This document shows, one piece after another, positions 22,360 through 57,049 of a stretch of 64,000 bases of DNA. Within the stretch, counting starts at the first letter, position 1. Every line of letters begins with the position of its first letter. The notes beneath the pieces were generated by a model. It did not search any database, had not been told where the DNA came from, and was given only the letters and a program-made list of their open reading frames with translations. The DNA lies in NCBI GenBank assembly GCA_964016885.1, contig OZ024740.1:109182001-109246000 (forward strand). Reading direction: 5' to 3'. The position numbers and the translations under genes were made by a program. The stretch is from Eledone cirrhosa. Taxonomy: Eukaryota.

Positions 22360-22822
<463 letters not shown>

Positions 22823-22845: not shown

Positions 22846-22966
22846 ATATTCATTAGTTAAGCAAAACAAGACCACAAATTTCACAAGGGAGACATTATTT
22901 AAAGATTGACAACATAGTTGCAGTTTAATGTAAGGAATAAGGAGTGTAAATATAGTTTAATGTAAG

Positions 22967-22970
<4 letters not shown>
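22846..22970 (+). repeat. Left 125-bp arm of a long-range inverted repeat, followed by (AAT)n 22968-23042
   Basis: Reverse complement of 46407-46531, with 4 mismatches by manual comparison. Confidence 0.92.
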
Positions 22971-23044
<74 letters not shown>

Positions 23045-23304
23045 TTTCTTTATTAACCACAAGGGTTTACATAAAGTAGACATTAAGGACAGTGCAGGAC
23101 AATGCAGGACGGTACAAATGGGCATTTCTGCGTGTAAAAAAACAAAAACAGAGGATGTAACAAAAATAACAATGAAAATAACAATGAAAAATTCCCCAAT
23201 AGGGGGGAGACTTCGGAGGGACATTTGTGGAGAAAGCCCAGTAAAAAGCCACAATGACCCTGACCACCAAGGCAAGTGCCCTCTCCCAGTTTTCCACCTT
23301 TAGT

Positions 23305-26300
23305 TTACAGATATATACTCAGAGTCGGCCCATTCACTCGGGCCATTCTTGCTTCTCTCACCCATCTTTCAACAAAATGCTGGGAAGAGAGCACTTCCTT
23401 CTCTACTCTGATTTTCCTTTTCAAATGAAATTTGAAAAAGTCAATCAGAGCATCACCGAAGAGGTAAGTGCTCGTCTTCAGCCCTTTCAAACGTGTCCAC
23501 CATACTATCTCTTTCGCCATGGCCACCAGACAGATAAAAACTGCCTGCCCTTCCCGGCTAAAGGAGGAGGGCGGGGCAATCCTCACGATAGACTCAGATG
23601 ATAGCTGGATCCGTCCTAAACGCGACAGCAGGTGTTCGACATAAACCCACAAGTCAGCAATTTTCGGACACTGGACGAGTGCGTGCAGGACGGTTTCGTC
23701 GACCTGCGCGCATCTCGGACATGCCCGGCTGACGGCACCTCCATGCCTGTAGAGTTTATCCCGAACTGGCAAGGCTCCTCGGTAGCACTGCCAGGCCAGA
23801 GATTTCTGGAAGTTGTCCATAGGCCCTGGCCCGAAAGTTCTTCCGAAGAGATTGGCTAGTTGATTTTCGTCGACGCCTAGAGTTTCCCCAAGTACGTCGT
23901 CGCTCTTCCCCTCCACTAATCCTCTATAGAACGCCGAGGTGGAGTTTCCACCGATCACATTGCCCGATTGGTCGAGGGCTGTGAGCGCCTGAAGACATTC
24001 CAGTCTCCAGGCGCTCCCTCTCGGTCTTCGCTTGACCCAGGACTGCAGCTCCGTCAAGGAAACGAGCTGGGGAAAAACGCGTCTAGCAAACGGCGACCAC
24101 ACCTGATCACCGTCGAGGAAGAGGTGGAGATGTCGTAGCCTGAGCGCGTGCCTGCGCATCATCAGCCACGGCATGCCCAGCCCTCCACGTAGCGGGTGTT
24201 GACAACAGATGGACCGCCTGACCATCGGAGCACGTCCCTTCCACAAAAAGCGAAAGAGCAAACGCTCCAGCGCAGTCAGGCGAGGCTTAGGACAAGGTAC
24301 GACGGTTAGGCGGTAGCAGATGACAGACGCGATGTACGCGTTAGCCACCTCCGCTCGACCTTTCAGGGATAGCTTCCTCTCCGCCCATTTCTGGGTGAGA
24401 GAAGCCACCCTGCTCGTCACCTCGTCCCAGTTTTTGTCCGTCTGGAGGTCCGGACCGAACCAGACCCCTAGCAATTTAACCGGTCCGTCCGTCCAGCGCC
24501 CGACGACGCTGTTGGACGGCATGGACCTGCCTCTCCAGGTGCCGAGCTGCAGGCCCAGTGACTTTTCCTGGTTGATCATTGCTCCTGTCACCGCTTCGTA
24601 TTCTCTTAGTGTAGTGCCGATCGCCTCGATGTGTTTGGCGTTCGACACCACTACGGTGACATCGTCCGCATATGCTGACACGGATCTTCCGCATCCTAGT
24701 TCGCGCGGGACTCCCCTCAACGTCTCCAGTTTGTGCAGTAATGGCTCGAGAGTCAATACGTACAAGAGGGACGAGAGGGGACATCCTTGGCGGACCGAGC
24801 GCATGATGTTGAACGGTTCCGACAGGTGACCGTTCACTCTCACTACAGAGCAGATGTCGCTGTGCATGGCAGCGATCCAGCCTCTGAAGACGGGCCCAAA
24901 GCCAGCCGCCCTCAGGACTGCCGCTAGGTAACGATGGTCGACCCTATCGAAAGCTTTCGACTGATCTAAATTGATCAAGGACCCACCCGTGCCAGGTTCC
25001 CTAGCTACCCTCTCTACGATGTATCGCATGAGGTGGAGGTTGTCGTGGATGGATCTGTCGGGAATGGCGCATGTCTGCGCCTCTCCCACCAGACCACCAA
25101 CGACAAGCGCCAACCTCTTTGCTAGCACCTTGGCCAAAATCTTAAACTCTGTGTTTAGCAGAGTTATGGGCCGGAAATTGTCTATGTTATCCCCCTTGTT
25201 CGGATCCTTTCTCAGCAGTGCCACCGCTCCTCGGCTCACAGAACTGGGAATTCTCCCGTTCTGTTGCCAGTTGCAGTAGACGTCCGCCAAGAGGCCTCCG
25301 AACAAGTCTGGCATCTGTACGTAAAGTTCATAGGGCAGACCATCCAAACCAGGCGATTTACCCCTTGTGCAGCCAGTCATTGCCTCCCGTACTTCAGCGG
25401 CTGTTATCGGCTTTTCGCAACACTTCGCCTCAGTGGCCGAGAGCCGCGGCAGTCCGTTGAGGTAGACACTAAAGTCCATCCCTCTACCCGGCCCCCCGCT
25501 GCCCCCGAACAGCTGAGCGAAGTGTCGCTGAAAAGCTTCACACATTTGCCCGGGATCGAGTAGCATGCGCCCGTCGTGGTCCACCAAAGACCGGATCGTG
25601 GCTTTGTTGCCACGACGCGCCTCCGCCACTCGGGCCCATTGAACGGCTTTCGTCCCCTCGTGTCTGAGAGCACGCACCCTAGCTCTGACAACGCAGCCTT
25701 CGTGCTTTGCATTGAAGAATTGGTCAAGGGCCAATTTCGCCGCAAGCACGTCGGTCGCAATGCCTTTGCTAAGCGCCTCGTCTAATTTTCTAACTAGTTC
25801 TCCCTCTGCTCTATTTTTCTCTATTGCTAAAGCCTTACTAAACCTAATCGATTCTATTCTAATCGCTCTTTTCAGAGCAAACCACCACTTGTTGTTGACG
25901 ATGGCCCCCGTCAACGCCCGCTTAACTAGTTCGCTAATCCGGTCTCTGTAGGCCTTGCGCGCTGGTAAGGACGCGTTTAGCTTCCAGTAGCCGGGTCCTC
26001 GTCTATGAAGCCTATCTAAGTCAAGCACACAGGTCACGAATTTGTGGTCCGTGTAGCTGACTATCTTGAATTGTGGACAGCCTATGCTAGACCTATCTAT
26101 TTCCCTACAAAATACTCTATCTAGATATGATCTGGATGACCCTATGCGGTTTGTCCAAGTCCACATTGGCACATTCGGGAAATCCAATCGGTACCTGTCA
26201 GACAGTTCAAAACGCCTGAGCAGGTTGGTGAGGCTCTTGCACCCTCCACCCCTATCCGCTAATCCCACACAGTCCCAGCGTGCATCTAAGATCCCGTTCC

Positions 26301-26724
26301 AGTCGCCCACTAACACTAAAGAGCGGGACGTTCCAAGAAAGGTCTCCAGACGCCGGAAGAAATCAGGCCGCCCTGCTCCTGTCGGGGCATAGACGGCCAC
26401 TAGCCTGAAAGCTTGCCCGTCTCCGCTGGTCACGTCCAGCACCACCAGCTTACCCTCTGGGTCCAGGAAGATGGCCCGTATGGCGAGATCCAAACCTCTC
26501 CGAAAAAGCACAGCAACTCCTCCACCCGATCCAGGACGGCTGGGAGATGCGTACACATCGTAGCCGCCGAAGATCGGTGCGAAGGCCCGTGCTTCGGAGA
26601 TTCTGGTCTCGCTGATGGCCACTACATCTATGTTTAGTGACCTGAGGTCGTTGAGCAGGTGACCCTGCTTCCATGACGACCCCAAGCCACGCGCATTTAT
26701 GCTGCCTATTCTGAGTGAGGTCAT
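23305..26724 (-). CDS. Tx1/L1 ORF2: APE endonuclease, reverse transcriptase, C-terminal CCHC (1139 aa)
   Basis: SINARGL, SET, GDWN, SYLDRVF, TDH (APE); DQSKAFDRV, QGCPLS, YADD (RT); CPRC..ETVLHALVQC. Confidence 0.96.
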   Translation of the reverse strand: MTSLRIGSINARGLGSSWKQGHLLNDLRSLNIDVVAISETRISEARAFAPIFGGYDVYASPSRPGSGGGVAVLFRRGLDLAIRAIFLDPEGKLVVLDVTSGDGQAFRLVAVYAPTGAGRPDFFRRLETFLGTSRSLVLVGDWNGILDARWDCVGLADRGGGCKSLTNLLRRFELSDRYRLDFPNVPMWTWTNRIGSSRSYLDRVFCREIDRSSIGCPQFKIVSYTDHKFVTCVLDLDRLHRRGPGYWKLNASLPARKAYRDRISELVKRALTGAIVNNKWWFALKRAIRIESIRFSKALAIEKNRAEGELVRKLDEALSKGIATDVLAAKLALDQFFNAKHEGCVVRARVRALRHEGTKAVQWARVAEARRGNKATIRSLVDHDGRMLLDPGQMCEAFQRHFAQLFGGSGGPGRGMDFSVYLNGLPRLSATEAKCCEKPITAAEVREAMTGCTRGKSPGLDGLPYELYVQMPDLFGGLLADVYCNWQQNGRIPSSVSRGAVALLRKDPNKGDNIDNFRPITLLNTEFKILAKVLAKRLALVVGGLVGEAQTCAIPDRSIHDNLHLMRYIVERVAREPGTGGSLINLDQSKAFDRVDHRYLAAVLRAAGFGPVFRGWIAAMHSDICSVVRVNGHLSEPFNIMRSVRQGCPLSSLLYVLTLEPLLHKLETLRGVPRELGCGRSVSAYADDVTVVVSNAKHIEAIGTTLREYEAVTGAMINQEKSLGLQLGTWRGRSMPSNSVVGRWTDGPVKLLGVWFGPDLQTDKNWDEVTSRVASLTQKWAERKLSLKGRAEVANAYIASVICYRLTVVPCPKPRLTALERLLFRFLWKGRAPMVRRSICCQHPLRGGLGMPWLMMRRHALRLRHLHLFLDGDQVWSPFARRVFPQLVSLTELQSWVKRRPRGSAWRLECLQALTALDQSGNVIGGNSTSAFYRGLVEGKSDDVLGETLGVDENQLANLFGRTFGPGPMDNFQKSLAWQCYRGALPVRDKLYRHGGAVSRACPRCAQVDETVLHALVQCPKIADLWVYVEHLLSRLGRIQLSSESIVRIAPPSSFSREGQAVFICLVAMAKEIVWWTRLKGLKTSTYLFGDALIDFFKFHLKRKIRVEKEVLSSQHFVERWVREARMARVNGPTLSIYL

Positions 26725-26759
26725 GTTTAAAATAGAGTGGAAAAGATGGGAAAGACCAC

Positions 26760-28838
26760 TTACCGTACTTTTGGTAGAGGAGGGATGGTTTTTACATCCC
26801 TTTTCACTTGATCGTCTGGTGAAGGGACCGTTGAATCGTCCCTTCGGCTGGTCGTCGGCTCTTCTAAGAGAATGTCTGAGTATACTCTTCGATTGATGGT
26901 TCCTCCTAGGTCCCTGAAATCACCAACTGCGTTGGGGAATTTCGTTTTAATATTTGTGTATTGTTTCTGTGCTATTTTTAGCAGTCTTATGTTAGTTGGC
27001 GTTTTGATTGGTGCTGGTATTATGTAGTCCTGTTGTGAAATGTCTGTGTGTTCAATTATGTAAGTCATTAGTTTCTTGTTGTGTGTATTTATTGCCGTGC
27101 ATTTGTTTTTCTGGGGGTGGGGGTGGGGGGGGGGGGGGGTTCTGCTATTTTCTTGTCGTTGTTGCTGGGTGTGTGTGTTTTGTTGTTGTGTTTGCGTTGT
27201 TGGTGCTTGTGGTGGTGGTGTTGAAGGTGTTGTTGGCGGTGGGGTTGTCGCCGGTGGTGATGGTGGCGCTAGTGTGGGTGGTGATGGTGTTGGTGTTGTT
27301 GCTGCTGTGGGTCTCTTTGCAGTAGACTTTACCCTTTTCTCATTTCTTTCCTCCCTTTTCAAAGGCGACGATGCGCTGCTTCTGCGTTTGTGCCTTCTTA
27401 CGACCTTTTGCCATCTCTCTCCCACCTCACACTCCATGTCTGATTCTGTGAGGTCGGGGAGGGGTACCAACTCCACTCTTTCACTTGTTGTTGTTGGTGA
27501 TGTTTGCACTGGAGTCTCTGTTGCAGCTGCATTTGGTATTGCTGTTGTTGTTGTTAGTATTTCCACTGCTGCTGCTGTTTTTGATTTCCGTGGAGTGGGT
27601 ATGGGTGCCACGGGCCTATCGTTCCTGGTTGCCGCTTGTCCTGTTGCTGGTAGCCGTGGAGCCGGATTCGGAAGGAGGGGGGTTTTCTCCTTTCTCAGGG
27701 TCTTCTCGTTGCAGAAGGCCCTGAGGTGGGTCTTCGATCCACAGCGAAAGCATTTCGGGCGTTTGCCCTCAACACTTATGGGCAGTTGAGTGCCGTTATC
27801 GAAGTCTATCACATCCGGGATAGCTTCGATGCACTCCTGGTTGGTTTGGATTAGCATCTCAATGGAGGAGCCGACCCAATCTTCTCTTACTTTTTTCTGT
27901 ACTTGCAGTACAGTTGTTTTGTCCTCGATTCCGACGAGGACAGACGCGGCCAGCCAAGAAGGGGTCATTCCGGGGGGGACGTGGGTCAGTTTGACCCTCA
28001 CAATTTTTTGCCCGCAGTAGGAGGCCACCAACACCATTTCCTCGCTCCTTAGGGTCACTACTGATTGGGCTTTTGCCTCCTGGGGTGTGGCAAAAAGTAC
28101 GTCTACGGTGGCATATTTTTTGCCTCGGGTGATGTGCGTTTTCCGCTGCCACACAGACCCCAAGGCTTTTTGTATTTGGGCCTCTGTGGCTCTTTCCACC
28201 CTACGGGATTTTGTACTTACTGTACGGTACGTGACCGTACAGTGCTCTTGGGTTTCGAAAAATTTTTCCGCTGCCTTGCAGATTGCTCGGTGTCCGTTCT
28301 TTGTCACCATCTTCTTCGCTTCCTCTAATTCCTCATTTGTTATGAGGATTGTTTCCAAGTTTTTCGCAATACCTGCAAATGAGATTGGTTTTTCTCTGCT
28401 GTTGTTGTTGCCGTCAGAGCTGTTGGTACTTTTGTTGTTGCTGCAGGTACTACGACTACTGCCTCCGCCGCTGTTGCTGTGGTTGTTGTTGGTGTTGCTG
28501 GTGATGCTGTTGCGGCTGCTACTGTTGTTTTCATTGTCACTGTTGCTGTTGTTATTACGGCTGCTACTGCTATTATTCCTGACGTCAGACGAATGAACTG
28601 GGTTTTCGTATTTCCCGCACACCTGTTTCGTCGCTGTCGTCGTCGTCGTGGAGAAACCTTGCACGCTTTGCACGAGACTTTTCTTTTCTTTCGTCGCTTG
28701 CGAAAGAGAAGGGAGGGAGAGAGACACATTTAAAGAAGGGAGGGAGAGAGACAATCTTCTCTCTGCTGTAGTGATGATTGAGGAAGAAGAAGACGGAATG
28801 AGTGGGAGTGACGTATGAAATTTCTTTTTCGTAGCCAT
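26760..28838 (-). CDS. Tx1/L1 ORF1 (gag-like, single CCHC knuckle, low-complexity N/S- and P/T-rich regions)
   Basis: First ATG at 28838 in AACATGG context; CFRCGSKTHLRAFC (CX2CX4HX4C); ends 35 nt before the ORF2 ATG. Confidence 0.88.
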   Translation of the reverse strand: MATKKKFHTSLPLIPSSSSSIITTAERRLSLSLPSLNVSLSLPSLSQATKEKKSLVQSVQGFSTTTTTATKQVCGKYENPVHSSDVRNNSSSSRNNNSNSDNENNSSSRNSITSNTNNNHSNSGGGSSRSTCSNNKSTNSSDGNNNSREKPISFAGIAKNLETILITNEELEEAKKMVTKNGHRAICKAAEKFFETQEHCTVTYRTVSTKSRRVERATEAQIQKALGSVWQRKTHITRGKKYATVDVLFATPQEAKAQSVVTLRSEEMVLVASYCGQKIVRVKLTHVPPGMTPSWLAASVLVGIEDKTTVLQVQKKVREDWVGSSIEMLIQTNQECIEAIPDVIDFDNGTQLPISVEGKRPKCFRCGSKTHLRAFCNEKTLRKEKTPLLPNPAPRLPATGQAATRNDRPVAPIPTPRKSKTAAAVEILTTTTAIPNAAATETPVQTSPTTTSERVELVPLPDLTESDMECEVGERWQKVVRRHKRRSSASSPLKREERNEKRVKSTAKRPTAATTPTPSPPTLAPPSPPATTPPPTTPSTPPPQAPTTQTQQQNTHTQQQRQENSRTPPPPHPHPQKNKCTAINTHNKKLMTYIIEHTDISQQDYIIPAPIKTPTNIRLLKIAQKQYTNIKTKFPNAVGDFRDLGGTINRRVYSDILLEEPTTSRRDDSTVPSPDDQVKRDVKTIPPLPKVR

Positions 28839-29054
28839 GTTGTTTTTTTGTATAAAATGAAATTTTGGGTACAAAACCCCAATAACTGGTTATTTAACCC
28901 CGAAGGGCCAAATAACGTACAGAAAGACCCCTCTCACGAGGAGGAGGGTGTCTTTATCAACAATTTGGTTCAAGTTTTAAACAATTTACAATTGTTTTAA
29001 CGGTTAAAAATTACTATACCTTACAGAGCCGAGCCTCCGTCAACCATGGCATTC

Positions 29055-29101
<47 letters not shown>

Positions 29102-29376
29102 GGGAATAATAATGATTTCTTTATTAACCACAAGGGTTTACATAAAGTAGACATTAAGGACAGTGCAGGACAATGCAGGACGGTACAAATGGGCATTTCT
29201 GCGTGTAAAAAAAACAAAAACAGAGGATGTAACAAAAATAACAATGAAAATAACAATGAAAAATTCCCCAATAGGGGGGAGACTTCGGAGGGACATTTGT
29301 GGAGAAAGCCCAGTAAAAAGCCACAATGACCCTGACCACCAAGGCAAGTGCCCTCTCCCAGTTTTCCACCTTTAGT

Positions 29377-32300
29377 TTACAGATATATACTCAGAGTCGG
29401 CCCATTCACTCGGGCCATTCTTGCTTCTCTCACCCATCTTTCAACAAAATGCTGGGAAGAGAGCACTTCCTTCTCTACTCTGATTTTCCTTTTCAAATGA
29501 AATTTGAAAAAGTCAATCAGAGCATCACCGAAGAGGTAAGTGCTCGTCTTCAGCCCTTTCAAACGTGTCCACCATACTATCTCTTTCGCCATGGCCACCA
29601 GACAGATAAAAACTGCCTGCCCTTCCCGGCTAAAGGAGGAGGGCGGGGCAATCCTCACGATAGACTCAGATGATAACTGGATCCGTCCTAAACGCGACAG
29701 CAGGTGTTCGACATAAACCCACAAGTCAGCAATTTTCGGACACTGGACGAGTGCGTGCAGGACGGTTTCGTCGCCCTGCGCGCATCTCGGACATGCCCGG
29801 CTGACGGCACCTCCATGCCTGTAGAGTTTATCCCGAACTGGCAAGGCTCCTCGGTAGCACTGCCAGGCCAGAGATTTCTGGAAGTTGTCCATAGGCCCTG
29901 GCCCGAAAGTTCTTCCGAAGAGATTGGCTAGTTGATTTTCGTCGACGCCTAGAGTTTCCCCAAGTACGTCGTCGCTCTTCCCCTCCACTAATCCTCTATA
30001 GAACGCCGAGGTGGAGTTTCCACCGATCACATTGCCCGATTGGTCGAGGGCTGTGAGCGCCTGAAGACATTCCAGTCTCCAGGCGCTCCCTCTCGGTCTT
30101 CGCTTGACCCAGGACTGCAGCTCCGTCAAGGAAACGAGCTGGGGAAAAACGCGTCTAGCAAACGGCGACCACACCTGATCACCGTCGAGGAAGAGGTGGA
30201 GATGTCGTAGCCTGAGCGCGTGCCTGCGCATCATCAGCCACGGCATGCCCAGCCCTCCACGTAGCGGGTGTTGACAACAGATGGACCGCCTGACCATCGG
30301 AGCACGTCCCTTCCACAAAAAGCGAAAGAGCAAACGCTCCAGCGCAGTCAGGCGAGGCTTAGGACAAGGTACGACGGTTAGGCGGTAGCAGATGACAGAC
30401 GCGATGTACGCGTTAGCCACCTCCGCTCGACCTTTCAGGGATAGCTTCCTCTCCGCCCATTTCTGGGTGAGAGAAGCCACCCTGCTCGTCACCTCGTCCC
30501 AGTTTTTGTCCGTCTGGAGGTCCGGACCGAACCAGACCCCTAGCAATTTAACCGGTCCGTCCGTCCAGCGCCCGACGACGCTGTTGGACGGCATGGACCT
30601 GCCTCTCCAGGTGCCGAGCTGCAGGCCCACTGACTTTTCCTGGTTGATCATTGCTCCTGTCACCGCTTCGTATTCTCTTAGTGTAGTGCCGATCGCCTCG
30701 ATGTGTTTGGCGTTCGACACCACTACGGTGACATCGTCCGCATATGCTGACACGGATCTTCCGCATCCTAGTTCGCGCGGGACTCCCCTCAACGTCTCCA
30801 GTTTGTGCAGTAATGGCTCGAGAGTCAATACGTACAAGAGGGACGAGAGGGGACATCCTTGGCGGACCGAGCGCATGATGTTGAACGGTTCCGACAGGTG
30901 ACCGTTCACTCTCACCACAGAGCAGATGTCGCTGTGCATGGCAGCGATCCAGCCTCTGAAGACGGGCCCAAAGCCAGCCGCCCTCAGGACTGCCGCTAGG
31001 TAACGATGGTCGACCCTATCGAAAGCTTTCGACTGATCTAAATTGATCAAGGACCCACCCGTGCCAGGTTCCCTAGCTACCCTCTCTACGATGTATCGCA
31101 TGAGGTGGAGGTTGTCGTGGATGGATCTGTCGGGAATGGCGCATGTCTGCGCCTCTCCCACCAGACCACCAACGATAAGCGCCAACCTCTTTGCTAGCAC
31201 CTTGGCCAAAATCTTAAACTCTGTGTTTAGCAGAGTTATGGGCCGGAAATTGTCTATGTTATCCCCCTTGTTCGGATCCTTTCTCAGCAGTGCCACCGCT
31301 CCTCGGCTCACAGAACTGGGAATTCTCCCGTTCTGTTGCCAGTTGCAGTAGACGTCCGCCAAGAGGCCTCCGAACAAGTCTGGCATCTGTACGTAAAGTT
31401 CATAGGGCAGACCATCCAAACCAGGCGATTTGCCCCTTGTGCAGCCAGTCATCGCCTCCCTTACTTCAGCGGCTGTTATCGGCTTTTCGCAACACTTCGC
31501 CTCAGTGGCCGAGAGCCGCGGCAGTCCGTCGAGGTAGACACTAAAGTCCATCCCTCTACCCGGCCCCCCGCTGCCCCCGAACAGCTGAGCGAAGTGTTGC
31601 TGAAAAGCTTCACACATTTGCCCGGGATCGAGTAGCATGCGCCCGTCGTGGTCCACCAAAGACCGGATCGTGGCTTTGTTGCCACGACGCGCCTCCGCCA
31701 CTCGGGCCCATTGAACGGCTTTCGTCCCCTCGTGTCTGAGAGCACGCACCCTAGCTCTGACAACGCAGCCTTCGTGCTTTGCATTGAAGAATTGGTCAAG
31801 GGCCAATTTCGCCGCAAGCACGTCGGTCGCAATGCCTTTGCTAAGCGCCTCGTCTAATTTTCTAACTAGTTCTCCCTCTGCTCTATTTTTCTCTATTGCT
31901 AAAGCCTTACTAAACCTAATCGATTCTATTCTAATCGCTCTTTTCAGAGCAAACCACCACTTGTTGTTGACGATGGCCCCCGTCAACGCCCGCTTAACTA
32001 GTTCGCTAATCCGGTCTCTGTAGGCCTTGCGCGCTGGTAAGGACGCGTTTAGCTTCCAGTAGCCGGGTCCTCGTCTATGAAGCCTATCTAAGTCAAGCAC
32101 ACAGATCACAAATTTGTGGTCCGTGTAGCTGACTATCTTGAATTGTGGACAGCCTATGCTAGACCTATCTATTTCCCTACAAAATACTCTATCTAGATAT
32201 GATCTGGATGACCCTATGCGGTTTGTCCAAGTCCACATTGGCACATTCGGGAAATCCAATCGGTACCTGTCAGACAGTTCAAAACGCCTGAGCAGGTTGG

Positions 32301-32796
32301 TGAGGCTCTTGCACCCTCCACCCCTATCCGCTAATCCCACACAGTCCCAGCGTGCATCTAAGATCCCGTTCCAGTCGCCCACTAACACTAAAGAGCGGGA
32401 CGTTCCAAGAAAGGTCTCCAGACGCCGGAAGAAATCAGGCCGCCCTGCTCCTGTCGGGGCATAGACGGCCACTAGCCTGAAAGCTTGCCCGTCTCCGCTG
32501 GTCACGTCCAGCACCACCAGCTTACCCTCTGGGTCCAGGAAGATGGCCCGTATGGCGAGATCCAAACCTCTCCGAAAAAGCACAGCAACTCCTCCACCGG
32601 ATCCAGGACGGCTGGGAGATGCGTACACATCGAAGCCGCCGAAGATCGGTGCGAAGGCCCGTGCTTCGGAGATTCTGGTCTCGCTGATGGCCACTACATC
32701 TATGTTTAGTGACCTGAGGTCGTTGAGCAGGTGACCCTGCTTCCATGACGACCCCAAGCCACGCGCATTTATGCTGCCTATTCTGAGTGAGGTCAT
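29377..32796 (-). CDS. Tx1/L1 ORF2 (APE-RT-CCHC, 1139 aa)
   Basis: Same motifs as 23305-26724, uninterrupted. Confidence 0.96.
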   Translation of the reverse strand: MTSLRIGSINARGLGSSWKQGHLLNDLRSLNIDVVAISETRISEARAFAPIFGGFDVYASPSRPGSGGGVAVLFRRGLDLAIRAIFLDPEGKLVVLDVTSGDGQAFRLVAVYAPTGAGRPDFFRRLETFLGTSRSLVLVGDWNGILDARWDCVGLADRGGGCKSLTNLLRRFELSDRYRLDFPNVPMWTWTNRIGSSRSYLDRVFCREIDRSSIGCPQFKIVSYTDHKFVICVLDLDRLHRRGPGYWKLNASLPARKAYRDRISELVKRALTGAIVNNKWWFALKRAIRIESIRFSKALAIEKNRAEGELVRKLDEALSKGIATDVLAAKLALDQFFNAKHEGCVVRARVRALRHEGTKAVQWARVAEARRGNKATIRSLVDHDGRMLLDPGQMCEAFQQHFAQLFGGSGGPGRGMDFSVYLDGLPRLSATEAKCCEKPITAAEVREAMTGCTRGKSPGLDGLPYELYVQMPDLFGGLLADVYCNWQQNGRIPSSVSRGAVALLRKDPNKGDNIDNFRPITLLNTEFKILAKVLAKRLALIVGGLVGEAQTCAIPDRSIHDNLHLMRYIVERVAREPGTGGSLINLDQSKAFDRVDHRYLAAVLRAAGFGPVFRGWIAAMHSDICSVVRVNGHLSEPFNIMRSVRQGCPLSSLLYVLTLEPLLHKLETLRGVPRELGCGRSVSAYADDVTVVVSNAKHIEAIGTTLREYEAVTGAMINQEKSVGLQLGTWRGRSMPSNSVVGRWTDGPVKLLGVWFGPDLQTDKNWDEVTSRVASLTQKWAERKLSLKGRAEVANAYIASVICYRLTVVPCPKPRLTALERLLFRFLWKGRAPMVRRSICCQHPLRGGLGMPWLMMRRHALRLRHLHLFLDGDQVWSPFARRVFPQLVSLTELQSWVKRRPRGSAWRLECLQALTALDQSGNVIGGNSTSAFYRGLVEGKSDDVLGETLGVDENQLANLFGRTFGPGPMDNFQKSLAWQCYRGALPVRDKLYRHGGAVSRACPRCAQGDETVLHALVQCPKIADLWVYVEHLLSRLGRIQLSSESIVRIAPPSSFSREGQAVFICLVAMAKEIVWWTRLKGLKTSTYLFGDALIDFFKFHLKRKIRVEKEVLSSQHFVERWVREARMARVNGPTLSIYL

Positions 32797-32831
32797 GTTT
32801 AAAATAGAGTGGAAAAGATGGGAAAGACCAC

Positions 32832-34928: not shown

Positions 34929-35144
34929 GTTGTTTTTTTGTATAAAATGAAATTTTGGGTACAAAACCCCAATAACTGGTTATTTAACCCCGAAGGGCCA
35001 AATAACGTACAGAAAGACCCCTCTCACGAGGAGGAGGGTGTCTTTATCAACAATTTGGTTCAAGTTTTAAACAATTTACAATTGTTTTAACGGTTAAAAA
35101 TTACTATACCTTACAGAGCCGAGCCTCCGTCAACCATGGCATTC

Positions 35145-35191
<47 letters not shown>

Positions 35192-35205
35192 GGGAATAAT
35201 AATAA

Positions 35206-37872: not shown

Positions 37873-38710
37873 TTCCCAGAATTCTTGCACTTCCTCCTTG
37901 GGTGGTATTGATTTAGCAGTTATTGTTGACTTACCAATTTTTCTGTAGAAGTTTCTTTGGTTGTTTTTGAACATATTATTGTCCTTATAGAATCTAGATC
38001 GTTTTTCAAAGCGCCTTATACGAGCAGCTTTGGCCGACACTTTTTGCTTGATTATTTCTATCAGCATGTCTATGTCACTTGTTGATTTTATACTACTTTC
38101 TTTTCAGTTTTCTAAGTTTAGTTTGTTTAACATGTTCACCTACTTTATAGTTTGTTAACATTTCTATGTCAGATCGGAGAAGGTTTATTTGGCGATTGAT
38201 GTTCTCTTGCCAAGTAGATTTTTTGTGGGAATTCCTTTGTTTTTTCACCTTCACTCCACATAAGTGAGTGGTGACTTTAGCCGATGCATAATAGAGATGA
38301 TTTAAATCAGTAATGTTTAGTTTGTTTGTGATGATAATGTTTTTGAGTTTATGTTAGTCTTGTGTATTATCTTTTGGTTCTGTTTGGAGTTCTGGATCTT
38401 AGGGAGGGTGTCTCGTTACCCCATGTCAGATTCTTTCATTTTCATCCATTCGATTATAATTTCATCCTTCAAGTTGGCAAGTTCATTCTCATTCATTTCT
38501 TTATCATTTACGATCTCATTGTTTTCATTTGGAGTTTCATCTTGAGCATGCACTCCCTCCACTTTTTAGATCCTTTCTTTAATTTGTTCTGTTGTCAGTG
38601 ATTCCGCCCCAACCCTGGGATTCGAAGTGTTACAATTTACCTCGTTTTCACTGACACATGTTTCATTTTCCCTTCGCTGACTTTGTGCTAATAGCTTGAT
38701 CTGATCAATT
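37871..38710 (-). mobile_element. R4/Dong-like family A, inverted 5'-truncated and 3'-deleted copy
   Basis: Reverse complement of ~36760-37600 with scattered substitutions; its 5' end abuts (ATT)n at 38711. Confidence 0.88.
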
Positions 38711-38740
38711 TATTATTATTATTATTATTGTTATTGTTAT

Positions 38741-41700
38741 TTCTTGAATCTCAGTCATTGATGTTGGTTAACTGGAAAGTCCGTTGGATTGAATATCAAA
38801 CCACTACCTGCAGCCTCAGATATTCAGGACGTATCGGAGGGTTCTTGCTGTTCCAAGCAAGCATGCCTTTTGAAGCGTTCCAAAAAGCGTGAAGGGGCCG
38901 ATTTTCTTTAACCATCCCTGGAAACTTTTGGAGATAGTCCCCAGTGCGCCTATGACAATCGGGATCACTTTGACTTCATGGCAGTTCCAAATCCTTTTCA
39001 CCTCCCACTTTAGGTCCTGGTATCGGTTAATTTTCTCCCTCTCCTTCTCTTGCACTCTCGTGTCGAACGGGCAGGCCACATCCACAATCAGGCACGATCT
39101 TTTTTCTTTGTCCACAACCACCAGGTCAGGTCTATTGTGTTCCAGTTTTTTGTCCGTCTGTATCCTAAAATCTCACAGCACCTTCACCTGATTGTTCTCC
39201 ATCACCGCCTCTGGCCTATGCTCATACCATTTCTCAGAATGTGGTAGATTGTTTACTTTTCACAGGTGCCAGTGGATCACCCTGCCCATCACATCGTGTC
39301 TCCAGCCCTTATAGTGGGTCTGGGCTAGGTGTTTACACTCGGACACAATGTGAGCCACAGTCTCCTCTCTCTCTCCACAGATCCTGCACAGTGGGCTGGC
39401 CTCCTCCTTGTAGATATGGTGCTTCAACCACTTCGTTTTGAGGGCCTGCTCCTGCGCAGCCATTAGCATTCCTTCTGTAGCCTTTTTGAGGTCTCCTCTT
39501 CTCAACCAGTTCCATGTCTGTGGATCTCTAAATTCAGTTTTCTCAAAGAAGGTACTATGAAGGGGTTTTCCCTTAAGGCTGCTCTTCCTCCTTGATGTTA
39601 TTTCCTCCCTGGACATCCCCTGGCCTACTGTCCCCTCCTTCAGTACAGCTCTGAGCATTGGCTCCTTACTATAGGTCACGTATTTGTATAGGTTGTTTTT
39701 CTCCATCTGAACACAGGCCTCTATGCTGATAAGACCTCTTCCATCCTCAGATCTCCTTAGGTAGAGTCTATCGACATCACTCCTCTTGTGGAACATGTTG
39801 TAGATAGTCAATAGCTTCCTAGTCTTCCTATCCATTTCTTTCTGTTCAGCAACATTTCATCTCAGAATTCCCGCACTGTACCTAATAATAGACACAGCTC
39901 GGGAATTTGCTGCGCTTATGGCATTTCTGCTGTTCAGATGTGACTTCAATACGCTCCTTACTCTCCGAATGTATTCAGTTCTTAACAATTCCTTCATTTT
40001 TTTGTTCTTTATGCCATCAGCCTCCAGAACGCCCAAATACTTGTATCCTTCCTCAGAGTCAATTTCCTTTATCATCTCACCTGTTGGTATCTGGATCCCG
40101 TTACTTCTGCTCAACCTACCCCTCTTCATCACAATGACTCCACATTTACCAATACCAAACTGCATACATATATCACTGCTGAAAATACGGACAGTGTCAA
40201 CAAGCACATCCAACTCCTTCTCACTTTTCCCGAAGAGCTTAAGATCGTCCATGAAGAGGAGGTGATTGATGGTAAGCTCTCCCCTTCCCAACTTGTATCC
40301 TGCTCTCACTTTTCGCAGCATAATGGTCAAGGGCATCAGGGCAAGGACAAACAACAGAGAGGACAGGCTATCTCCCTGGAAGATACCTCTCTTGATCTTC
40401 ACGCTTCCCAAGGATACTCCAGTTGATGTCAACTCTGTCTCCCAGGACCCCATACTTCTGCCTAGCAACTGTCTGATGTTATCCGCCACCCTGAAGATCT
40501 CCAGGCTTTTGGTGATCCAGGAATGAGGCACCATGTCAAATGCCTTTCTGTAGTCTATCCATCCCATGGCAAGATCAGTGTGTCTCCTCCTGCAATTCCC
40601 CATTACCATCTTATCAATAAGCAACTGGTCCTTTGTACCACGTGACTTCTTTCGGCATCCTTTCTGTTCGTCCGGTAACAAGTTGTTTGTGTGGAGGTGA
40701 TGGTAGATTTCCTCAGACACAATGCTCGTCAACAGTTTCCACATTACGGGCAGACATGTGATAGGTCTATAGTTGGTAGCATCATTACCCTTGATTCGGT
40801 CTTTCATTATCAGAACTGTGGTACCTTTTGTCAACCACTCTGGCACCTCACCCGACACCAAGCAGTCATTGAACATGGCCGTCAGCTTCGGGTGGAGGGA
40901 TGTTAGATGTTTAATCCAATACCCCTGCACACCATCTGGGCCTGGCGATTTCCAGTTGGTTAGTTTTTTGGCTTGTCCCTTAAGAGTTTCAACTGTGATA
41001 CTCAAATCAGTCTGTTGCTGTGCCTGCTCACCGATCTCCCTCTGTACTGTCTCAATCCACCCTGCCTGGGCATTGTGTCTAACATCCTGCTCCCATATTC
41101 CTCTCCAGAATGTTTTAGTTTGCTCCGCCCCAGGGATCAAGTCGTTGCCTCCTTCTTTGCCCTCAAGCTGTCCAAACAGCATCTTCTGGTTGTTGTCGAA
41201 CATGCGGTTCTGTTTATACTGACTGACTCTGTTCTCGTATCGCCTGATTTTTGCACTCTTTGCTACAATGCGTTGCTTCAATTCCTCTATGATAATATTT
41301 AGCTTTTTACTCCTAGTTTTGTATTTTATTTCCAGTCTATTTTTAGTGCTTATGTTTTTTAGTGTCCCATTCAGTAGTGACTCAAGCTTTCCTATGTCAT
41401 TTCTCATTTCCCCGATTTGCCCACTCAGTCGCTTCTTCCACCACGGCTCTGCTCTTTCTTGTCTGTTGTTTCCTCTCGCTTTTATACCAAGTAGTTTCCT
41501 CACCGTATTTGCTGTTGCTCTGAGGATATTGTTGCACTGGTGAAGGCTCCTCGCCTCAAGGTATGGGATGACTTTGTTTACCTTAGCTGTTGTTTCTTTT
41601 AACTTTTTCCTGTCTACAAATCTTAGGTTCATAGGTCTCCCACTATCATTGTTCAATTCATCTACCACTAAATTTAGGATGTCAACCGAATCTTGTCCTA

Positions 41701-43273
41701 GCCCGTCAGCATTCATCTCCTCAGTGGCCGTATCTCTGTTCCAGGTATTATTTATCTCAGTACTCAGATCATTGTCTGCTTCGGGTGGTTCCTCCGTTCT
41801 CAGGACCTCCTCACATTCATTTTCCACCGGCTCGCTTGTCTGGCATACTACACCCGCCATCTCCAAGCCATTCTCTCTGCTCAGTTCCTCCAGTTCCAGC
41901 TCGCTTATCCACCCATTAGTTCTTATTACCCGAGCCTGCCCGGCCAATTTTTGTTCATCTAATTTAAATAAACCAATCTCGTTCCAGATGTTATGCATCC
42001 GTCTCCTGTAGCCCCTCTCCTTGGGGTTACTTTTCAGGTAGCATTGCATAACAGTTCTATTCAATTCTTTCGTCCAGTTGGTTCTGGCCCCTTTCCTTCT
42101 TCTCCTTCCTCCAACATCAGCAGTATTTGGTTGACAGTCAGGTTCCTGCTGCTGAGCCAGGGGGCACCTGTTGGGTGAGAGTCTGTCACATGACGTTCTA
42201 GTCTCCATTTCACCGTTATTCGAACTGTTTATGTTCGATATTTAAACACTCTTATCGAGGATTGGCGAATGTATGTTTACATAGCCATCTGTGGGTCCGC
42301 CATCCCACTTGGCCCTTGTGTGGCATTATCACCACGCTGTATATGAACACACATAAACAAACAAACACACAGGCAGAAAGGGCCCCAGAAATGAATAAGC
42401 ATAAGTTTCATTGTAATGTAGTGTTCGAATGTCTGACTTAGTTTTAGTTTTTTAAGTTTTACTTTTTCCCCCCTCTTCTCTGTCCGTCCGCCTGCTTCTC
42501 TCTTCATTCTTATTTTCTTTACGTTTTTGGGGTTTCTTTTTTTTGTTTTTGTTTTTCTCTGTTTGTTTTTCTCGTTTTTTGCTGTTGTTGCTGTGCTGCT
42601 TTGGTTTTGTTGTTTGTTTTTTCTTTTTTCTTTTGGGTCTATCTATATATTTTGATGCCTTCCTCTTTGTTAGTAGTAGGAATTCTATAATGTGGGAGTA
42701 GCAGCCAGCAGGGAAGTGGGAGACTGGCGGCGTTAGCGATACTGAGACAGTGGTGGTGGTGATGTCGATACCGAGGCAGTGGTGGCGGTGATGTGACCGT
42801 ATTACTGTAGTGATGGTGCTGTAGCGGAGTCAAGGGGTGGTGGCGGCGGTGATGGGATAGTGGTGGTAATGATGGCCGTAGTGAGCGGTGGCGGTGAAGG
42901 TGAAAATGTGTCGTTATCTGGCTGTTGTGTTTAGTGTACACATATGATGGGGTGGGTGGTGTATCTAGTTTCTGGTGTTGGTGAGTTTAGCTGTCCTATA
43001 TAGTGTAGCCAGAGGAGAGGAGGGGAGGGGTTCTTCTTCCATTTATAGCCATTTTTTTGGGGGGATATACAGTGTACAATACAAAGTTGAATATTTGAAT
43101 ATTTGAGCCTTATAACAATATATTTTGGGTCCGAAATTTTTGGGGCTCAAGCCGGGTGCTTTACGTAGCATTTGTGCTAAGAGTTGTTATTTCACAAATG
43201 GTTTAAATATGTTAAAAATTCAAAACTTACGGGAGCGATTTCATGACCTCCGTCACCTCGTGCGTCTTCTTCC

Positions 43274-43275
<2 letters not shown>
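38741..43275 (-). mobile_element. R4/Dong-like family B, full length, between (ATT)n arrays
   Basis: ~1.07 kb leader, single long reading frame, short 3' UTR, (AAT)n tail on the sense strand. Confidence 0.92.
38816..42208 (-). pseudogene. Dong-like ORF (RT + CCHC + REL), one frame interrupted by three in-frame TGA codons
   Basis: NYRPITCL, DYRKAFD, QGDSLS, FMDDLK, CRIC..HIVSEC, RHD, RPDL..DVACPFD. TGA at 39857-39859, 39260-39262 and 39173-39175. Confidence 0.88.
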
Positions 43276-43304
<29 letters not shown>

Positions 43305-46300
43305 TGCATTTATCTTGCTTTATGTTTATACGAGTTATCACCAAGTCACAACCAGTGACCTCAAGAGACAACAAGGTCCGCCATGTTCAAGAAAGAACAC
43401 ACATATTCACACATGCATCCTTAGTGTTTAGACTTGTGATGTACTTATATTGACAGGATCTTCCTTAGTATATGGGCAGTTCCCATTAGTACTATCTTTT
43501 GTATTTCTCCTATACGCGGGTTTCCTGGGATTTGCGTTAAGTAGTCGTTAGACCCCTTAGGTATCATTCCCAGAGCGCCTACAACCACTGGTATTGTTTT
43601 AGTTCTCAATTTCCACATTTTTCCAATTTCTATCTCCAGGTCCTTATACTTGCTCAATTTTTCAAATGTTTTTATAGATACATTCTTGTCTATTGGAACA
43701 GACATATCAATTAGCAGGCATACCCTCCTTTGAAAGTCCTTCAATATTATATCAGGTCTATTTGCATCTATTTTTCGGTCTGTTTGGATGCTAAAGTTCC
43801 ACAAGATTGAGATGTGATCTTTTTCAAGTATGGGAGGTGGTTGATGCTCCCACCAATTCTTTTGATGGGGCAGGTCAAAATGCTTACACATTATCCAATG
43901 TATGTATTGTGCAGCTCTGTCATGCCTGTTTAGGTATTCGGTTGGAGATATAGGACTGCACATTGAAATTATATGGTCAATGGTCTCTGGTTGTTTTTTG
44001 CATACACGGCATAATGGGCTGCACCCATTTTTTATTATGTTGGCTTGGTAATTTTTTGTTGGCAGACACTGATCTTGTGCGGAGATAATCAGTCCTTCAG
44101 TCTCCGATTTCAGTCCAGAGGATGCCAACCACTGATGGGTTAAAGTTTTGTCAACATCAGGATTGTTAGCTCGCTCTGGGTATTTTCCATACAGAGGCTT
44201 TTCTTGCCATTTCTTAGCCAGTTTCTGTAGCAGTTCTTTCTTTGCAGTTACTTTTACCTGCTTTGCTTTTTCTGTGTTTTCCATTTCAGCAGTAAATGGG
44301 ACTTCTGAAATTTGTAGTCCATTACTGTATCTTTGTGCATCTTTTGTAATGGAATATGATCTTTTGGTGCTTTCGTGTTTCAAAACGAGTTTGATCATCC
44401 AATCATGTGATTCCCTTAGATATGTGGATAATCCAATTGTTGCAGTTTTCAACGCAATGTCTAACTGGATTAACCCACGTCCTCCTTCTTTCCTAGGGAG
44501 ATATATTCTATCTATGTCTGCCTTAGGGTGATGCATTCTGTGCATGGTTAAGAATTTTCGGATTTTTGTATCGAGCCTACGGATCTCTGTGCTTGACCAG
44601 TTGATGACATTGTAACTGTAGGTTACTACTGGTATGGCAAGCGTATTTATGGCATCGATCCTATTCCTTGCATTCAATTCCGTTCTTAAGATTGCTCTGA
44701 CTCTGCGGTAACATTCCTTCCTTATCCTTTCCCTCATTGTCGAGTGCTTGATTCCGTCTCCTTCACAAACACCTAGATATTTGTAAGTTTGTTCTTGATC
44801 AAGCTCTCTTATCACGTTCCCCCGATCAAGATTAATGTCTGAACTCTTCAGCAGCTTTCCTCTGGTGAACGTTGCTTTGGCGCATTTATCCAGTCCAAAC
44901 TCCATTTTAATGTCATCACTGAACTGCTTCACAGTGGATAATAGCCCTTGCAATTGTTCATCATTTTTTGCGAATAGTTTCAGGTCATCCATGTAGAACA
45001 GGTGATTAATGGTTTTGTCATAGACTCTATATCCATGTTTTGTTTCATTGAGCATTTTACTTAATGGTATAAGTGCGATGCAGAATAAAAGCGGTGATAA
45101 AGAGTCACCCTGAAAAATTCCACAATTAATGTTAACTTCTCCAGCTTCCAGTGATTTTGTTTCACTATTCAAAAGGAGTGTCGTTCTCCATGTCCTCATA
45201 CTGAATGACAAAAACCTCCTGACAACGGGGGATATTTTGAAAATCTCTAAACATTTTTCAATCCAACTGTGTGGCAAACTATCAAATGCTTTTTTATAAT
45301 CTATCCAAGCAATCGATAGATTTTTGTGTCTATTATGACAATCTTCCAGTATCATTTTGTTAACCAGAAGCTGATCCTTACAGCCATATGAGCCTCGTTT
45401 ACACCCTTTCTGCTCAATGGGAAATAGGTCATTTGTTATCAGGTGGTCATATGTGTATTCAGTTAGGACTGATGTTAAAATTTTATACATTGTGGTCAAG
45501 CAGGTTATCGGTCTGTAATTTTTGGGATTGTTTGTCTCATCATTCTTCGGTAGCAGGAATGTAATGCCGTTAACTAGCCATGATGGTATCTTTTCTGGCT
45601 CCTTAACTATTTCATTGTAAAGTTGGGCCAACAGCTCATGAGACTCTGTGAAGGCATTTATCCAAAAGTTTTGTATTTTGTCTTTTCCTGGGGATTTCCA
45701 TTTGCTGGTTTTTCTTAGAGCCAAGCGCAGCTGTTCAACTGTTATATTTTCCCATGTTTGTTCTTCAAGGTGAGCTGTTTCTTTCATTTGTCTGTCTATC
45801 CATGGGGCATGTATGTTATGAACTTTTTCTTCGGCCCAGATCTTTTCCCAGAATTCTTGCACTTCCTCCTTGGGTGGTATTGATTTAGCAGTTATTGTTG
45901 ACTTACCAATTTTTCTGTAGAAGTTTCTTTGGTTGTTTTTGAACATATTATTGTCCTTATAGAATCTAGATCGTTTTTCAAAGCGCCTTATACGAGCAGC
46001 TTTGGCCGACACTTTTTGCTTGATTGTTTCTATCAGCATGTCTATGTCACATGTTGATCTTATACTGTACTTTTTTTTCAATTTTCTAAGTTTAGTTTGT
46101 TTAACATGTTCACCTACTTTATAGTTTGTTAAAATTTCTATGTCAGATCGGAGAAGGTTTATTTGGCGATTGATGTTATCTTGCCAAGTAGATTTCTTGT
46201 GGGAATTCCTTTGTTTTTTCATCTTCACTCCACATAAGTGAGTGGTGACTTTAGCCGATGCATAATAGAGATGATTTAAGTCAGTAATGTTTATTTTGTT

Positions 46301-46322
46301 TGTGATGATAATGTTTTTGAGA
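43305..46322 (-). mobile_element. R4/Dong-like family A, 5'-truncated, 3'-intact, between (ATT)n arrays
   Basis: Open frame from the truncation point to the stop at 43445; (AAT)n tail on the sense strand. Confidence 0.93.
43445..46228 (-). CDS. Dong-like RT + CCHC zinc knuckle + REL (PD..D/E) endonuclease, N-terminally truncated
   Basis: NYRPITCL, DYKKAFDS, QGDSLSP, FYMDDLK, CRVC..HIISMC, RHD, NRPDI..DMSVP, KLSKY, PVVVGALG. Confidence 0.9.
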   Translation of the reverse strand: MKMKKQRNSHKKSTWQDNINRQINLLRSDIEILTNYKVGEHVKQTKLRKLKKKYSIRSTCDIDMLIETIKQKVSAKAARIRRFEKRSRFYKDNNMFKNNQRNFYRKIGKSTITAKSIPPKEEVQEFWEKIWAEEKVHNIHAPWIDRQMKETAHLEEQTWENITVEQLRLALRKTSKWKSPGKDKIQNFWINAFTESHELLAQLYNEIVKEPEKIPSWLVNGITFLLPKNDETNNPKNYRPITCLTTMYKILTSVLTEYTYDHLITNDLFPIEQKGCKRGSYGCKDQLLVNKMILEDCHNRHKNLSIAWIDYKKAFDSLPHSWIEKCLEIFKISPVVRRFLSFSMRTWRTTLLLNSETKSLEAGEVNINCGIFQGDSLSPLLFCIALIPLSKMLNETKHGYRVYDKTINHLFYMDDLKLFAKNDEQLQGLLSTVKQFSDDIKMEFGLDKCAKATFTRGKLLKSSDINLDRGNVIRELDQEQTYKYLGVCEGDGIKHSTMRERIRKECYRRVRAILRTELNARNRIDAINTLAIPVVTYSYNVINWSSTEIRRLDTKIRKFLTMHRMHHPKADIDRIYLPRKEGGRGLIQLDIALKTATIGLSTYLRESHDWMIKLVLKHESTKRSYSITKDAQRYSNGLQISEVPFTAEMENTEKAKQVKVTAKKELLQKLAKKWQEKPLYGKYPERANNPDVDKTLTHQWLASSGLKSETEGLIISAQDQCLPTKNYQANIIKNGCSPLCRVCKKQPETIDHIISMCSPISPTEYLNRHDRAAQYIHWIMCKHFDLPHQKNWWEHQPPPILEKDHISILWNFSIQTDRKIDANRPDIILKDFQRRVCLLIDMSVPIDKNVSIKTFEKLSKYKDLEIEIGKMWKLRTKTIPVVVGALGMIPKGSNDYLTQIPGNPRIGEIQKIVLMGTAHILRKILSI

Positions 46323-46406
<84 letters not shown>

Positions 46407-46410
<4 letters not shown>

Positions 46411-46531
46411 CTTACATTAAATTATATTTACACTCCTTATTACTTACATTAAACTGCAACTATGTTGACAATCTTTAAATAATGTCTTCCTTGTGAAATT
46501 TGTGGTCTTGTTTTGCTTAACTAATGAATAT
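46407..46531 (-). repeat. Right 125-bp arm of the long-range inverted repeat, preceded by (ATT)n 46323-46409
   Basis: Reverse complement of 22846-22970. Confidence 0.92.
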
Positions 46532-46709
46532 TTCCAGCTCTGTGCACCTAATCTCTGCATGAACCCAGCCATCTAGCTGCCTTCCACTGCATATTGCACA
46601 TTGCGCACCTGCCTTTACGCTTTTGGCTTCTAACAAATTCACCAATCTCTCTTCTTCTCTCCTATCTCCATCTCTCTCTTTAAGACTGGTTTACTCTTGA
46701 ACTGTGTAT

Positions 46710-46759
<50 letters not shown>

Positions 46760-57040: not shown

Positions 57041-57049
57041 AGGCTTTCG

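Follow-up and report, generated by a model that had tools for sequence, protein, structure and literature searches.

Dong elements of the R4 clade target TAA in Bombyx, Anopheles and Biomphalaria, as described in PMC3812793, and families of the Tx1 clade target microsatellites and transposons according to the account in PMC4494074. The Hydra-clade Penelope-like elements described by Craig et al. 2021 (PMC8557442) insert into (TA)n, have inverted 5′-truncated copies flanking the unit, and bear a one-sided tail. Dong-R4 and L1-Tx1 are among the most active long interspersed nuclear elements (LINEs) of Octopus vulgaris, for which hotspots of transposable elements (TEs) are reported without an explanation (PMC13282606). 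More generally, Dong-R4, L1-Tx1 and Penelope elements are described as abundant or active in octopods, in accounts whose relevant sections do not give targets or stacking (PMC13282606, PMC8967140). Here we analyze 64,000 nt of Eledone cirrhosa contig OZ024740.1 (GCA_964016885.1), hereafter the window, and in it a block at 22846-46531 whose enclosing element extends to 46717. From its sequence we read the block as an inverted-repeat insertion of a Penelope-like element (the host element) in (TA)n, whose mirrored (ATT)n tracts hold strand-locked Dong/R4-like and Tx1 retrotransposons and which was reshaped by annealing between neighbors and by a central deletion; we put the probability of this reading at roughly 0.78, and it implies no host function.

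The block is bounded by inverted arms (22846-22969 and 46408-46531) that align without gaps over 124 bp with 4 mismatches. Between them lie, from left to right, Tx1(−), Tx1(−), Dong-A(+), Dong-A(−), Dong-B(−) and Dong-A(−); the Tx1 copies face outwards and the Dong copies alone are convergent. The accompanying arrays are (AAT)25 at 22968, (AAT)15 at 29055 and 35145, (ATT)6 at 38712, (ATT)10 at 43275 and (ATT)29 at 46323, and these six are the only runs of at least four AAT or ATT units in the whole 64 kb. Over 22846-46717 (23,872 bases), just 22 bases fall outside the named parts and the AAT/ATT runs, namely the two interruptions by AAGGG and, in the tail of Dong-B, 12 bases, and there is no unique DNA. 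The parts library for this count was cut from the window itself, so that the count shows contiguity; the repeat nature of the parts is shown by their matches in the genome with which we compared them (3.0 Gb, 1,796 contigs). An initial annotation had given the same arms, arrays, order and strands of the six LINEs and lack of unique DNA, with an arm of 125 bp; it had not noted the 186 bases to the right of the block, the 2-base overlap at the center or that the spacers after the two Tx1 copies are the same. The parts and their immediate surroundings are:

22593-22764, no strand: (TA)77 and (TG)9; a short AT-rich run abuts the arm.
22846-22967, minus strand: left arm, an inverted copy of the 3′ pseudo-long terminal repeat (pseudo-LTR) end of the host element, without the 186-base extension.
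22968-23042, plus strand: (AAT)25, the microsatellite of the host pseudo-LTR, left copy.
23043-29054, minus strand: Tx1 copy 1, full length, with open reading frame (ORF) 2 at 23305-26919 (apurinic/apyrimidinic endonuclease (APE), reverse transcriptase (RT), zf-RVT) and ORF1 at 26760-28889.
29055-29113, plus strand: spacer (AAT)15-AAGGG-(AAT)3, 59 bases.
29114-35144, minus strand: Tx1 copy 2, full length, with ORF2 at 29377-32991 and ORF1 at 32832-34979.
35145-35203, plus strand: exact repeat of the 59-base spacer.
35204-37873, plus strand: Dong-A with its 5′ end, frameshifted near 37361-37385, 3′ half missing.
37872-38711, minus strand: Dong-A fragment, 5′-truncated and without a 3′ end.
38712-38741, minus strand: (ATT)6 and the interrupted tail of Dong-B.
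38742-43274, minus strand: Dong-B, full length; in-frame stops break its frame into pieces of 794, 198 and 118 aa.
43275-43304, minus strand: (ATT)10, the tail of the Dong-A copy on its right.
43305-46322, minus strand: Dong-A, 5′-truncated; its frame is open and contains RT, a CCHC knuckle and a PD..D nuclease motif.
46323-46409, plus strand: (ATT)29, the microsatellite of the host pseudo-LTR, right copy.
46410-46531, plus strand: right arm, the 3′ pseudo-LTR end of the Penelope-like host element.
46532-46717, plus strand: one-sided 186-base host extension, found beyond the arm at many other copies too.
46718-46759, no strand: (AT)21, the host insertion site on the right.

What kind of element supplies the arms? 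A 25-mer of the arm has 2,141 exact matches in the genome, and elsewhere the arm runs inward via (AAT)n to a fixed interior and then to the antisense strand of a frame that bears motifs of RT and GIY-YIG; at 14 of 20 loci found by a nuclease piece, the arm lies within 1.5 kb. Frames of 574-599 aa from natural copies contain YRDD and NIVY..SYIG motifs, a CxCX5C linker (CNCRYPNAC) and, towards their end, CDLC and CQH; a single Cys lies between GIY and YIG, and there is no CCHH. RWR and DKT are found in the frame from locus L305, with RWK or RWR and DKT or DKS in homologues; 9 of 56 homologues were taken into the alignment of the host frame, and the best named matches are from two Octopus species. 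Among 30 arm loci taken in order along contig C1, some of them the two arms of one copy, 18 adjoin (AT)n, 11 do so via the 186-base extension and one does neither, so that 29 of 30 end in (AT)n. At locus L094 arm and extension are directly repeated about 3.5 kb apart together with an inverted arm, and partial tandem or inverted pseudo-LTRs are seen both there and at L303-L306. A hammerhead-like pattern (CUGAnGA..GAAAC-AAUU-GUH) occurs in 23 of 66 segments, immediately inward of the array, with a CCGAUGA variant in others; this region is deleted in the window. Searches of the arm loci, the hammerhead-like stretch and the block against Rfam gave no RNA family at a useful score, the miRNA hits being AT-repeat hairpins.

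All sequence features with a clear outcome mark the host as Penelope-like; judged by its motifs, it is a Penelope-like retroelement of Hydra-clade type and the arm is its 3′ pseudo-LTR. Its motifs and its (TA)n insertion fit the criteria described for the Hydra clade in PMC8557442, and on the same criteria a first label of Penelope/Poseidon was dropped. As in the Hydra-clade elements characterized there, RT shares one frame with a GIY-YIG at the C terminus, DKT and CxCX5C are present, CCHH is absent, the target is (TA)n, and partial tandem and inverted pseudo-LTRs occur with a one-sided extension. Unlike the elements in that description, the host pseudo-LTR carries an (ATT)n that is targeted by other elements, and its extension measures 186 bases rather than 30-40.

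The palindromic form is a known by-product of Penelope-like insertion, and here it adds the microsatellite in both orientations. A genome search for the arm, from which the initial annotation expected short empty copies, returned such arm-to-arm copies (0.1-0.7 kb) together with other filled ones. The 100 arm matches listed comprise 18 convergent pairs and one divergent pair within 30 kb, compared to 1.8 close pairs expected; convergent spacings among these matches range from 115 bases to 6.8 kb, and the 23.6 kb of the window is the longest. In 8 filled hairpins of 4.7-23.7 kb (the window included, from 14 chosen), 38 LINE alignment pieces show not one reversal of the rule that AAT stands on the left and ATT on the right. 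Hosts are filled unevenly: Dong or Tx1 follows directly on 9 of 28 other best-identity arms, and a LINE is found within 1.5 kb at only 1-2 of the 30 position-ordered arm loci, most of which belong to an older subfamily whose arrays are short and interrupted. At L018 (G000:C22:30511266-30511906) the arm pair encloses a tandem 32-base unit from the inner end of the arm, a minisatellite born of the pseudo-LTR, and in the L026-L027 flanks (G000:C1:37408700-37409300) a short arm pair is centered in a larger inverted duplication of flanking DNA.

The inserted LINEs belong to three families, for which exact 3′-end matches number 4,797 (Dong-A), 10,133 (Dong-B) and 3,534 (Tx1, with 1,687 for its 5′ end) genome-wide. 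Dong-A and Dong-B share 42% protein identity, and both have RT, a CCHC knuckle and a C-terminal PD..D motif, which we take to be the pattern of a restriction-like endonuclease (REL). Pfam finds no APE in them, PDB matches are to R2 proteins only, and nearly all homologues are without a family name. By the features tested they appear Dong/R4-like. An Rfam scan of the block found no ribozyme, a scan that did not include a dedicated fold search for a 5′ ribozyme like that of hepatitis delta virus. Tx1 has two ORFs, intact in both window copies, with APE, RT and zf-RVT in ORF2 and a CX2CX4HX4C knuckle in ORF1. The best named match of ORF2 is from Argonauta hians (73%), and in separate searches it came out closer to the Xenopus Tx1 ORF2 than to mammalian L1, with 297 bits to YTX2 (residues 66-900) vs. 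182 bits to human L1 ORF2 (whole protein).

In best-identity samples, 30/30 Dong-A and 30/30 Dong-B 3′ ends run into AAT, and among the 95 Dong-B ends from all loci that were fetched, 1 is followed by ATT and 2 by neither; full Dong 5′ ends are preceded by AAT in 10 of 11 cases. Tx1 3′ ends sampled by position (n = 30) are followed by ATT in 25 cases, lack (ATT)3 in 5 and are never followed by AAT, and 81 of 82 Tx1 5′ ends are flanked by ATT on the sense strand. To judge from these junctions, Tx1 needs no tail, while Dong brings (AAT)n tails, and the earlier proposal that the elements renew their target with their tails stands for Dong but is not supported for Tx1. A short interspersed nuclear element (SINE) of about 180 bases with an (ATT)n tail also lies inside these arrays, with ATT after 39 of 81 of its 3′ ends; the tail agrees with Tx1 in polarity, and the SINE may seed targets. 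Its core presumably resembles a Deu/Nin domain. Copies in the window lie at 17536-17774, 51847-51922, 54897-55073, 56195-56597 and 59274-59348, two of them as short inverted pairs, and a 54-base SINE-like piece in the 5′ region of Dong-A(+) (36062-36115) is 89% identical to 55029-55082.

On the first 52.3 Mb of C1, 200 LINE ends form 80 neighbor pairs within 7 kb, compared to 5.3 expected (maximum of 13 in 500 draws). Both members have the same AAT polarity in 79 of these 80 pairs, including 20 of 20 Tx1-Dong pairs, which bears out the proposal that an APE-type Tx1 family and two REL-type Dong/R4-like families use one (AAT)n target in fixed opposite orientations. The lock on orientation is no peculiarity of the palindrome, and mixed stacks of Dong-A, Dong-B and Tx1 occur elsewhere, mostly without the arm. 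For none of the 200 ends is an exact arm match listed within 25 kb (five sit in one hairpin, L021, whose arms lack the exact 25-mer), and neither the arm nor the host interior was found in the 1.5-kb flanks of 90 sampled LINE 3′-end loci. The host thus supplies a minority of the targets, and the idea of the palindrome as a special hub finds no support.

The logic of target-primed reverse transcription is established. By that logic the priming strand would be AAT for Tx1 and ATT for Dong, a division like that of TRAS and SART, two R1-clade elements, on the opposite strands of (TTAGG)n. Tx1 and Dong each likely nick a single strand of the AAT/ATT duplex, and their orientation would be set by this. 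Each insertion would split the array and Dong would add a tail, so that targets would multiply.

Several features of this guild have parallels. Like the Dong elements of Bombyx, Anopheles and Biomphalaria as described in PMC3812793, Dong-A and Dong-B have AAT/TAA on the sense strand, the same target, and a single ORF with RT and C-terminal REL; unlike those, two families at 42% identity coexist here in thousands of copies, stacking together and with a Tx1 family. Our Tx1 resembles Kibi, Koshi, crocodilian Tx1 and Tx1L in Tx1D in its two ORFs, APE-RT and target specificity, but ATT is not among the targets named in the account of PMC4494074 (TC, TTC, TTCC/TTTC, snRNA genes and DNA transposons). 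Opposite insertion directions on opposite strands of one repeat are described for TRAS and SART in silkworm (TTAGG)n (PMC7265360), which are APE-type and telomeric, whereas the repeat shared here by APE and REL families, at thousands of sites, is an interstitial triplet. Finally, Utopia (REL) and Keno (APE, Tx1 clade) combine both enzyme types on one target, the U2 snRNA genes, but that target is a host gene that the elements do not multiply, and the relevant part of PMC4640811 describes no mixed polarity-locked stacks.

Stacks also contain further variants. In a second Tx1 subfamily (L173-L175, L213, L220, L232, L259) the 3′ two thirds are shared at 94-96% and the 5′ 2.2 kb differ; further Tx1 families at 65-82% sit in stacks with the same polarity, and the pair L174-L175 repeats its spacer too. 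Chimeric or internally deleted LINEs are common (L102, L079, L258 and others), among them Dong-B 5′ ends on a Dong-A body and Tx1 copies with internal deletions. An old Tx1-related ORF2 fragment, 70% identical to the young family, lies outside the block at 19155-19928 with no adjacent AAT array.

Adjacent Tx1 copies are often chimeric, identical at the 5′ end only and repeating the whole spacer, which is new here. In the window the same 59-base spacer follows each copy. The two copies differ by 31 mismatches, and at 11 of these sites both alleles recur in a set of 13 other copies; these differences exclude a recent exact tandem duplication; their 5′-terminal 358 bases are identical, including 2 alleles absent from copies at other loci. 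Copy 1 is probably the older one. From 60 fetched Tx1 5′ ends we used 49, after removing 10 without a 3′ end by motif and one misparsed. Among 25 adjacent same-family pairs, 15 have spacers with non-AAT letters, and in 9 of these 15 (window included) the spacer is repeated after the right-hand copy. The repeated spacers measure 24 to 891 bases and three carry a LINE fragment as a passenger; one was scored by its 869/888 identity and not by the exact test. By comparison, none of 34 Tx1 copies lacking a same-family 5′ end on their left repeats anything beyond AAT (9/25 vs. 0/34, Fisher p = 1.6e-4; 5/15 in the later sample alone, p = 1.6e-3). Identity along the pairs is step-like: mismatches in the 5′ tract and then in the rest are 0 in 1.3 kb and 147, 0 in 1.65 kb and 26, 0 in 1.2 kb and 34, and 0 in 0.75 kb and 56, and for two pairs with pure AAT spacers 0 in 2.9 kb then 26, and 4 in 1.5 kb then 242. 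Identical 5′ tracts in non-repeating pairs measure 6-155 bases, and the background median is 34 (154 non-neighbor pairs).

We hypothesize that when Tx1 lands beside an older Tx1, its cDNA can anneal to the 5′ end of the resident, next to the nick, and thereby close the 5′ junction. The annealed cDNA would copy the neighbor's 5′ end together with the array and any passengers, which amounts to a spacer of 59 bases here and up to about 0.9 kb elsewhere; such copying would also make 5′-short cDNAs full-length. Tx1 stacks thus likely grow in part by a newcomer copying its neighbor's start together with the target. Chimeric L1 insertions reportedly arise through pairing of the cDNA 3′ end beside the target (Gilbert et al.). 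For R2, pairing of the cDNA with upstream DNA is described as the favored junction route (PMC13580325), and annealing of a similar kind is held responsible for templated L1 insertions (10.1101/2024.08.27.596794). The arrangement proposed here is alike in that the cDNA, through its 3′ end, pairs with and copies homologous DNA next to the target, but differs from the R2 and L1 cases as described there in that this DNA belongs to a resident element of the same family, that 0.4-3 kb are copied including array and passengers, and that about a third of adjacent pairs are affected. As a rule for Dong, neighbor copying was rejected. Dong-A fragments with the same 5′ truncation point do occur twice in a row (L226 8216-10000, L065), a possible Dong- or Tx1-driven duplication.

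At the center of the block, Dong-A(+) ends at 37873 and Dong-A(−) begins at 37872, so that the two overlap by 2 bases; neither retains its 3′ end, and nothing is left of the host interior. The stretch 37872-38711 matches 36760-37601 with 97.7% identity over 843 bases, forming an 840-bp inverted repeat with a 270-base loop. Since the three Dong-A copies of the block are only 97.3-98.0% alike, we regard them as separate insertions. A single twin-primed Dong-A, or a mirror copy made by the host element, was rejected for the center on account of the absent 3′ tails, the different 5′ junctions, and 15 site differences and 3 gaps. Once a Dong-A was present in each arm, a deletion over the 2-base overlap would have taken the host interior and both Dong-A 3′ ends.

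A number of results weigh against this overall reading. For the host element, Pfam gives GIY-YIG only weakly (E = 0.039), the longer host frames have no Pfam and no PDB match, and Rfam left the hammerhead-like motif unscored in the arm loci and the hammerhead-like stretch. The Tx1 pairs were partly chosen for tandem spacing, some lie in one array and all come from C1. The 358-base tract of the window is shorter than the background maximum of 402 bases in the 154 non-neighbor pairs and its step is weak, and one repeated spacer of 885 bases goes with an identical 5′ tract of 25 bases only. Among Dong tandem pairs, just 1 of 17 shares a truncation point, which means that neighbor copying is not general. 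At the center, contigs from 4 runs (at most 2 samples) over 37620-38900 are short repeat fragments, and none of those listed bridges the junction, though fragments of this kind speak neither for nor against the assembly. Lastly, unequal crossover yields the same chimera as cDNA annealing.

This last point leads to the strongest competitor, which keeps the same host element and guild and lets the Tx1 chimeras and repeated spacers arise by unequal crossover or gene conversion between misaligned alleles after ordinary insertions, and not during integration. Its product is identical on paper, no new chemistry is needed, and the identical tracts, at 1.6-2.9 kb in the longest cases, are long for local annealing. 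However, every one of the 10 switch points that were scored falls in the 5′ half, at a distance of 25 to 2,917 bases from the 5′ end (against an even spread, p is about 0.001; the points were hand-picked, and one further pair gave a lower bound only). One case has at most 25 bases of homology, no full-length pair that we compared is identical throughout, and Dong pairs, which are equally homologous, rarely show the signature (the 1 in 17 above). We consider crossover the less likely account, though a serious contender.

Could the block instead be maintained, or be in use, as a locus for silencing? Reading through from 35204, where Dong-A has its 5′ end, transcription would then produce the 840-bp hairpin, and from it small interfering or PIWI-interacting RNAs against Dong-A. 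A near-perfect hairpin is present in the sequence, and a 901-base part of it has a predicted fold of −556 kcal/mol compared to −186 kcal/mol for shuffles; moreover, Bombyx Dong is described as being freed from read-through RNA by a 5′ ribozyme (PMC3774820), so that stacks would be transcribed through. Against this, the hairpin is explained as a by-product of the deletion and the Tx1 copies face outwards; a role of this kind is improbable.

An artefact of assembly or haplotype merging behind the Tx1 pair or the central inversion is very improbable. Long near-identical repeats do invite such errors, and there is no bridging record among the short-read contigs listed at the center, but the variants by which the copies differ are dispersed and segregate in the family, and seven other filled hairpins and many tandem Tx1 arrays follow the same rules. 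Least credible is the initial view of the host as a small non-autonomous fold-back DNA element in its own right, like a miniature inverted-repeat transposable element (MITE), with a microsatellite per arm as a dedicated self-renewing hub: the short arm-to-arm copies and the arms that run directly into Dong or Tx1 would suit it, but it is largely refuted by the arm's link to the Penelope-like frame, the arm being the 3′ end of an RT-coding element and continuing into partial tandem pseudo-LTRs, with a 186-base extension at one end only, an inversion point that varies by copy, no convergent exact-match partner within 30 kb for 64 of the 100 listed arm matches, few LINEs near position-ordered arms, and no arm near any of the 90 sampled LINE 3′ ends.

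Elsewhere in the window, a 409-base imperfect fold-back at 59670-60078, 87% self-complementary, lies in an AT run; it is unrelated to the arm and has the look of a MITE or hairpin element. A short tandem array with a period near 60 bases occupies 56727-57042.

Each ingredient of the Penelope-like hairpin and its strand-locked guild has a precedent (TRAS/SART, Utopia/Keno, and cDNA annealing in R2 and L1), and we found no report of the combination. The literature searched held no polarity-locked Dong/Tx1 stacks, ATT-targeting Tx1 or neighbor-templated Tx1 chimeras, with the proviso that Repbase and supplements may hold the families. A shared AAT target with polarity-locked stacking would explain TE clustering and predict where new insertions fall. 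APE and REL enzymes that read opposite strands of one triplet repeat would be a simple pair for biochemistry, and the Tx1 chimeras would provide a natural, countable record of how non-LTR elements close their 5′ junctions. Neighbor copying would be a route by which truncated copies could regain promoter and ORF1. More tentatively, and at somewhat under even odds, the AAT guild may be a cooperative, self-growing system, with targets supplied by pseudo-LTRs, SINEs and Dong tails, a division of strands, self-completion of Tx1 from its neighbor, and hairpins as nodes of double-stranded RNA. If this is true, stacks would rescue 5′-short cDNAs as recombined elements of full length and duplicate the target, the hairpin hosts would be the nodes where a stack turns into double-stranded RNA, and clustering would be the fitness strategy of the element.

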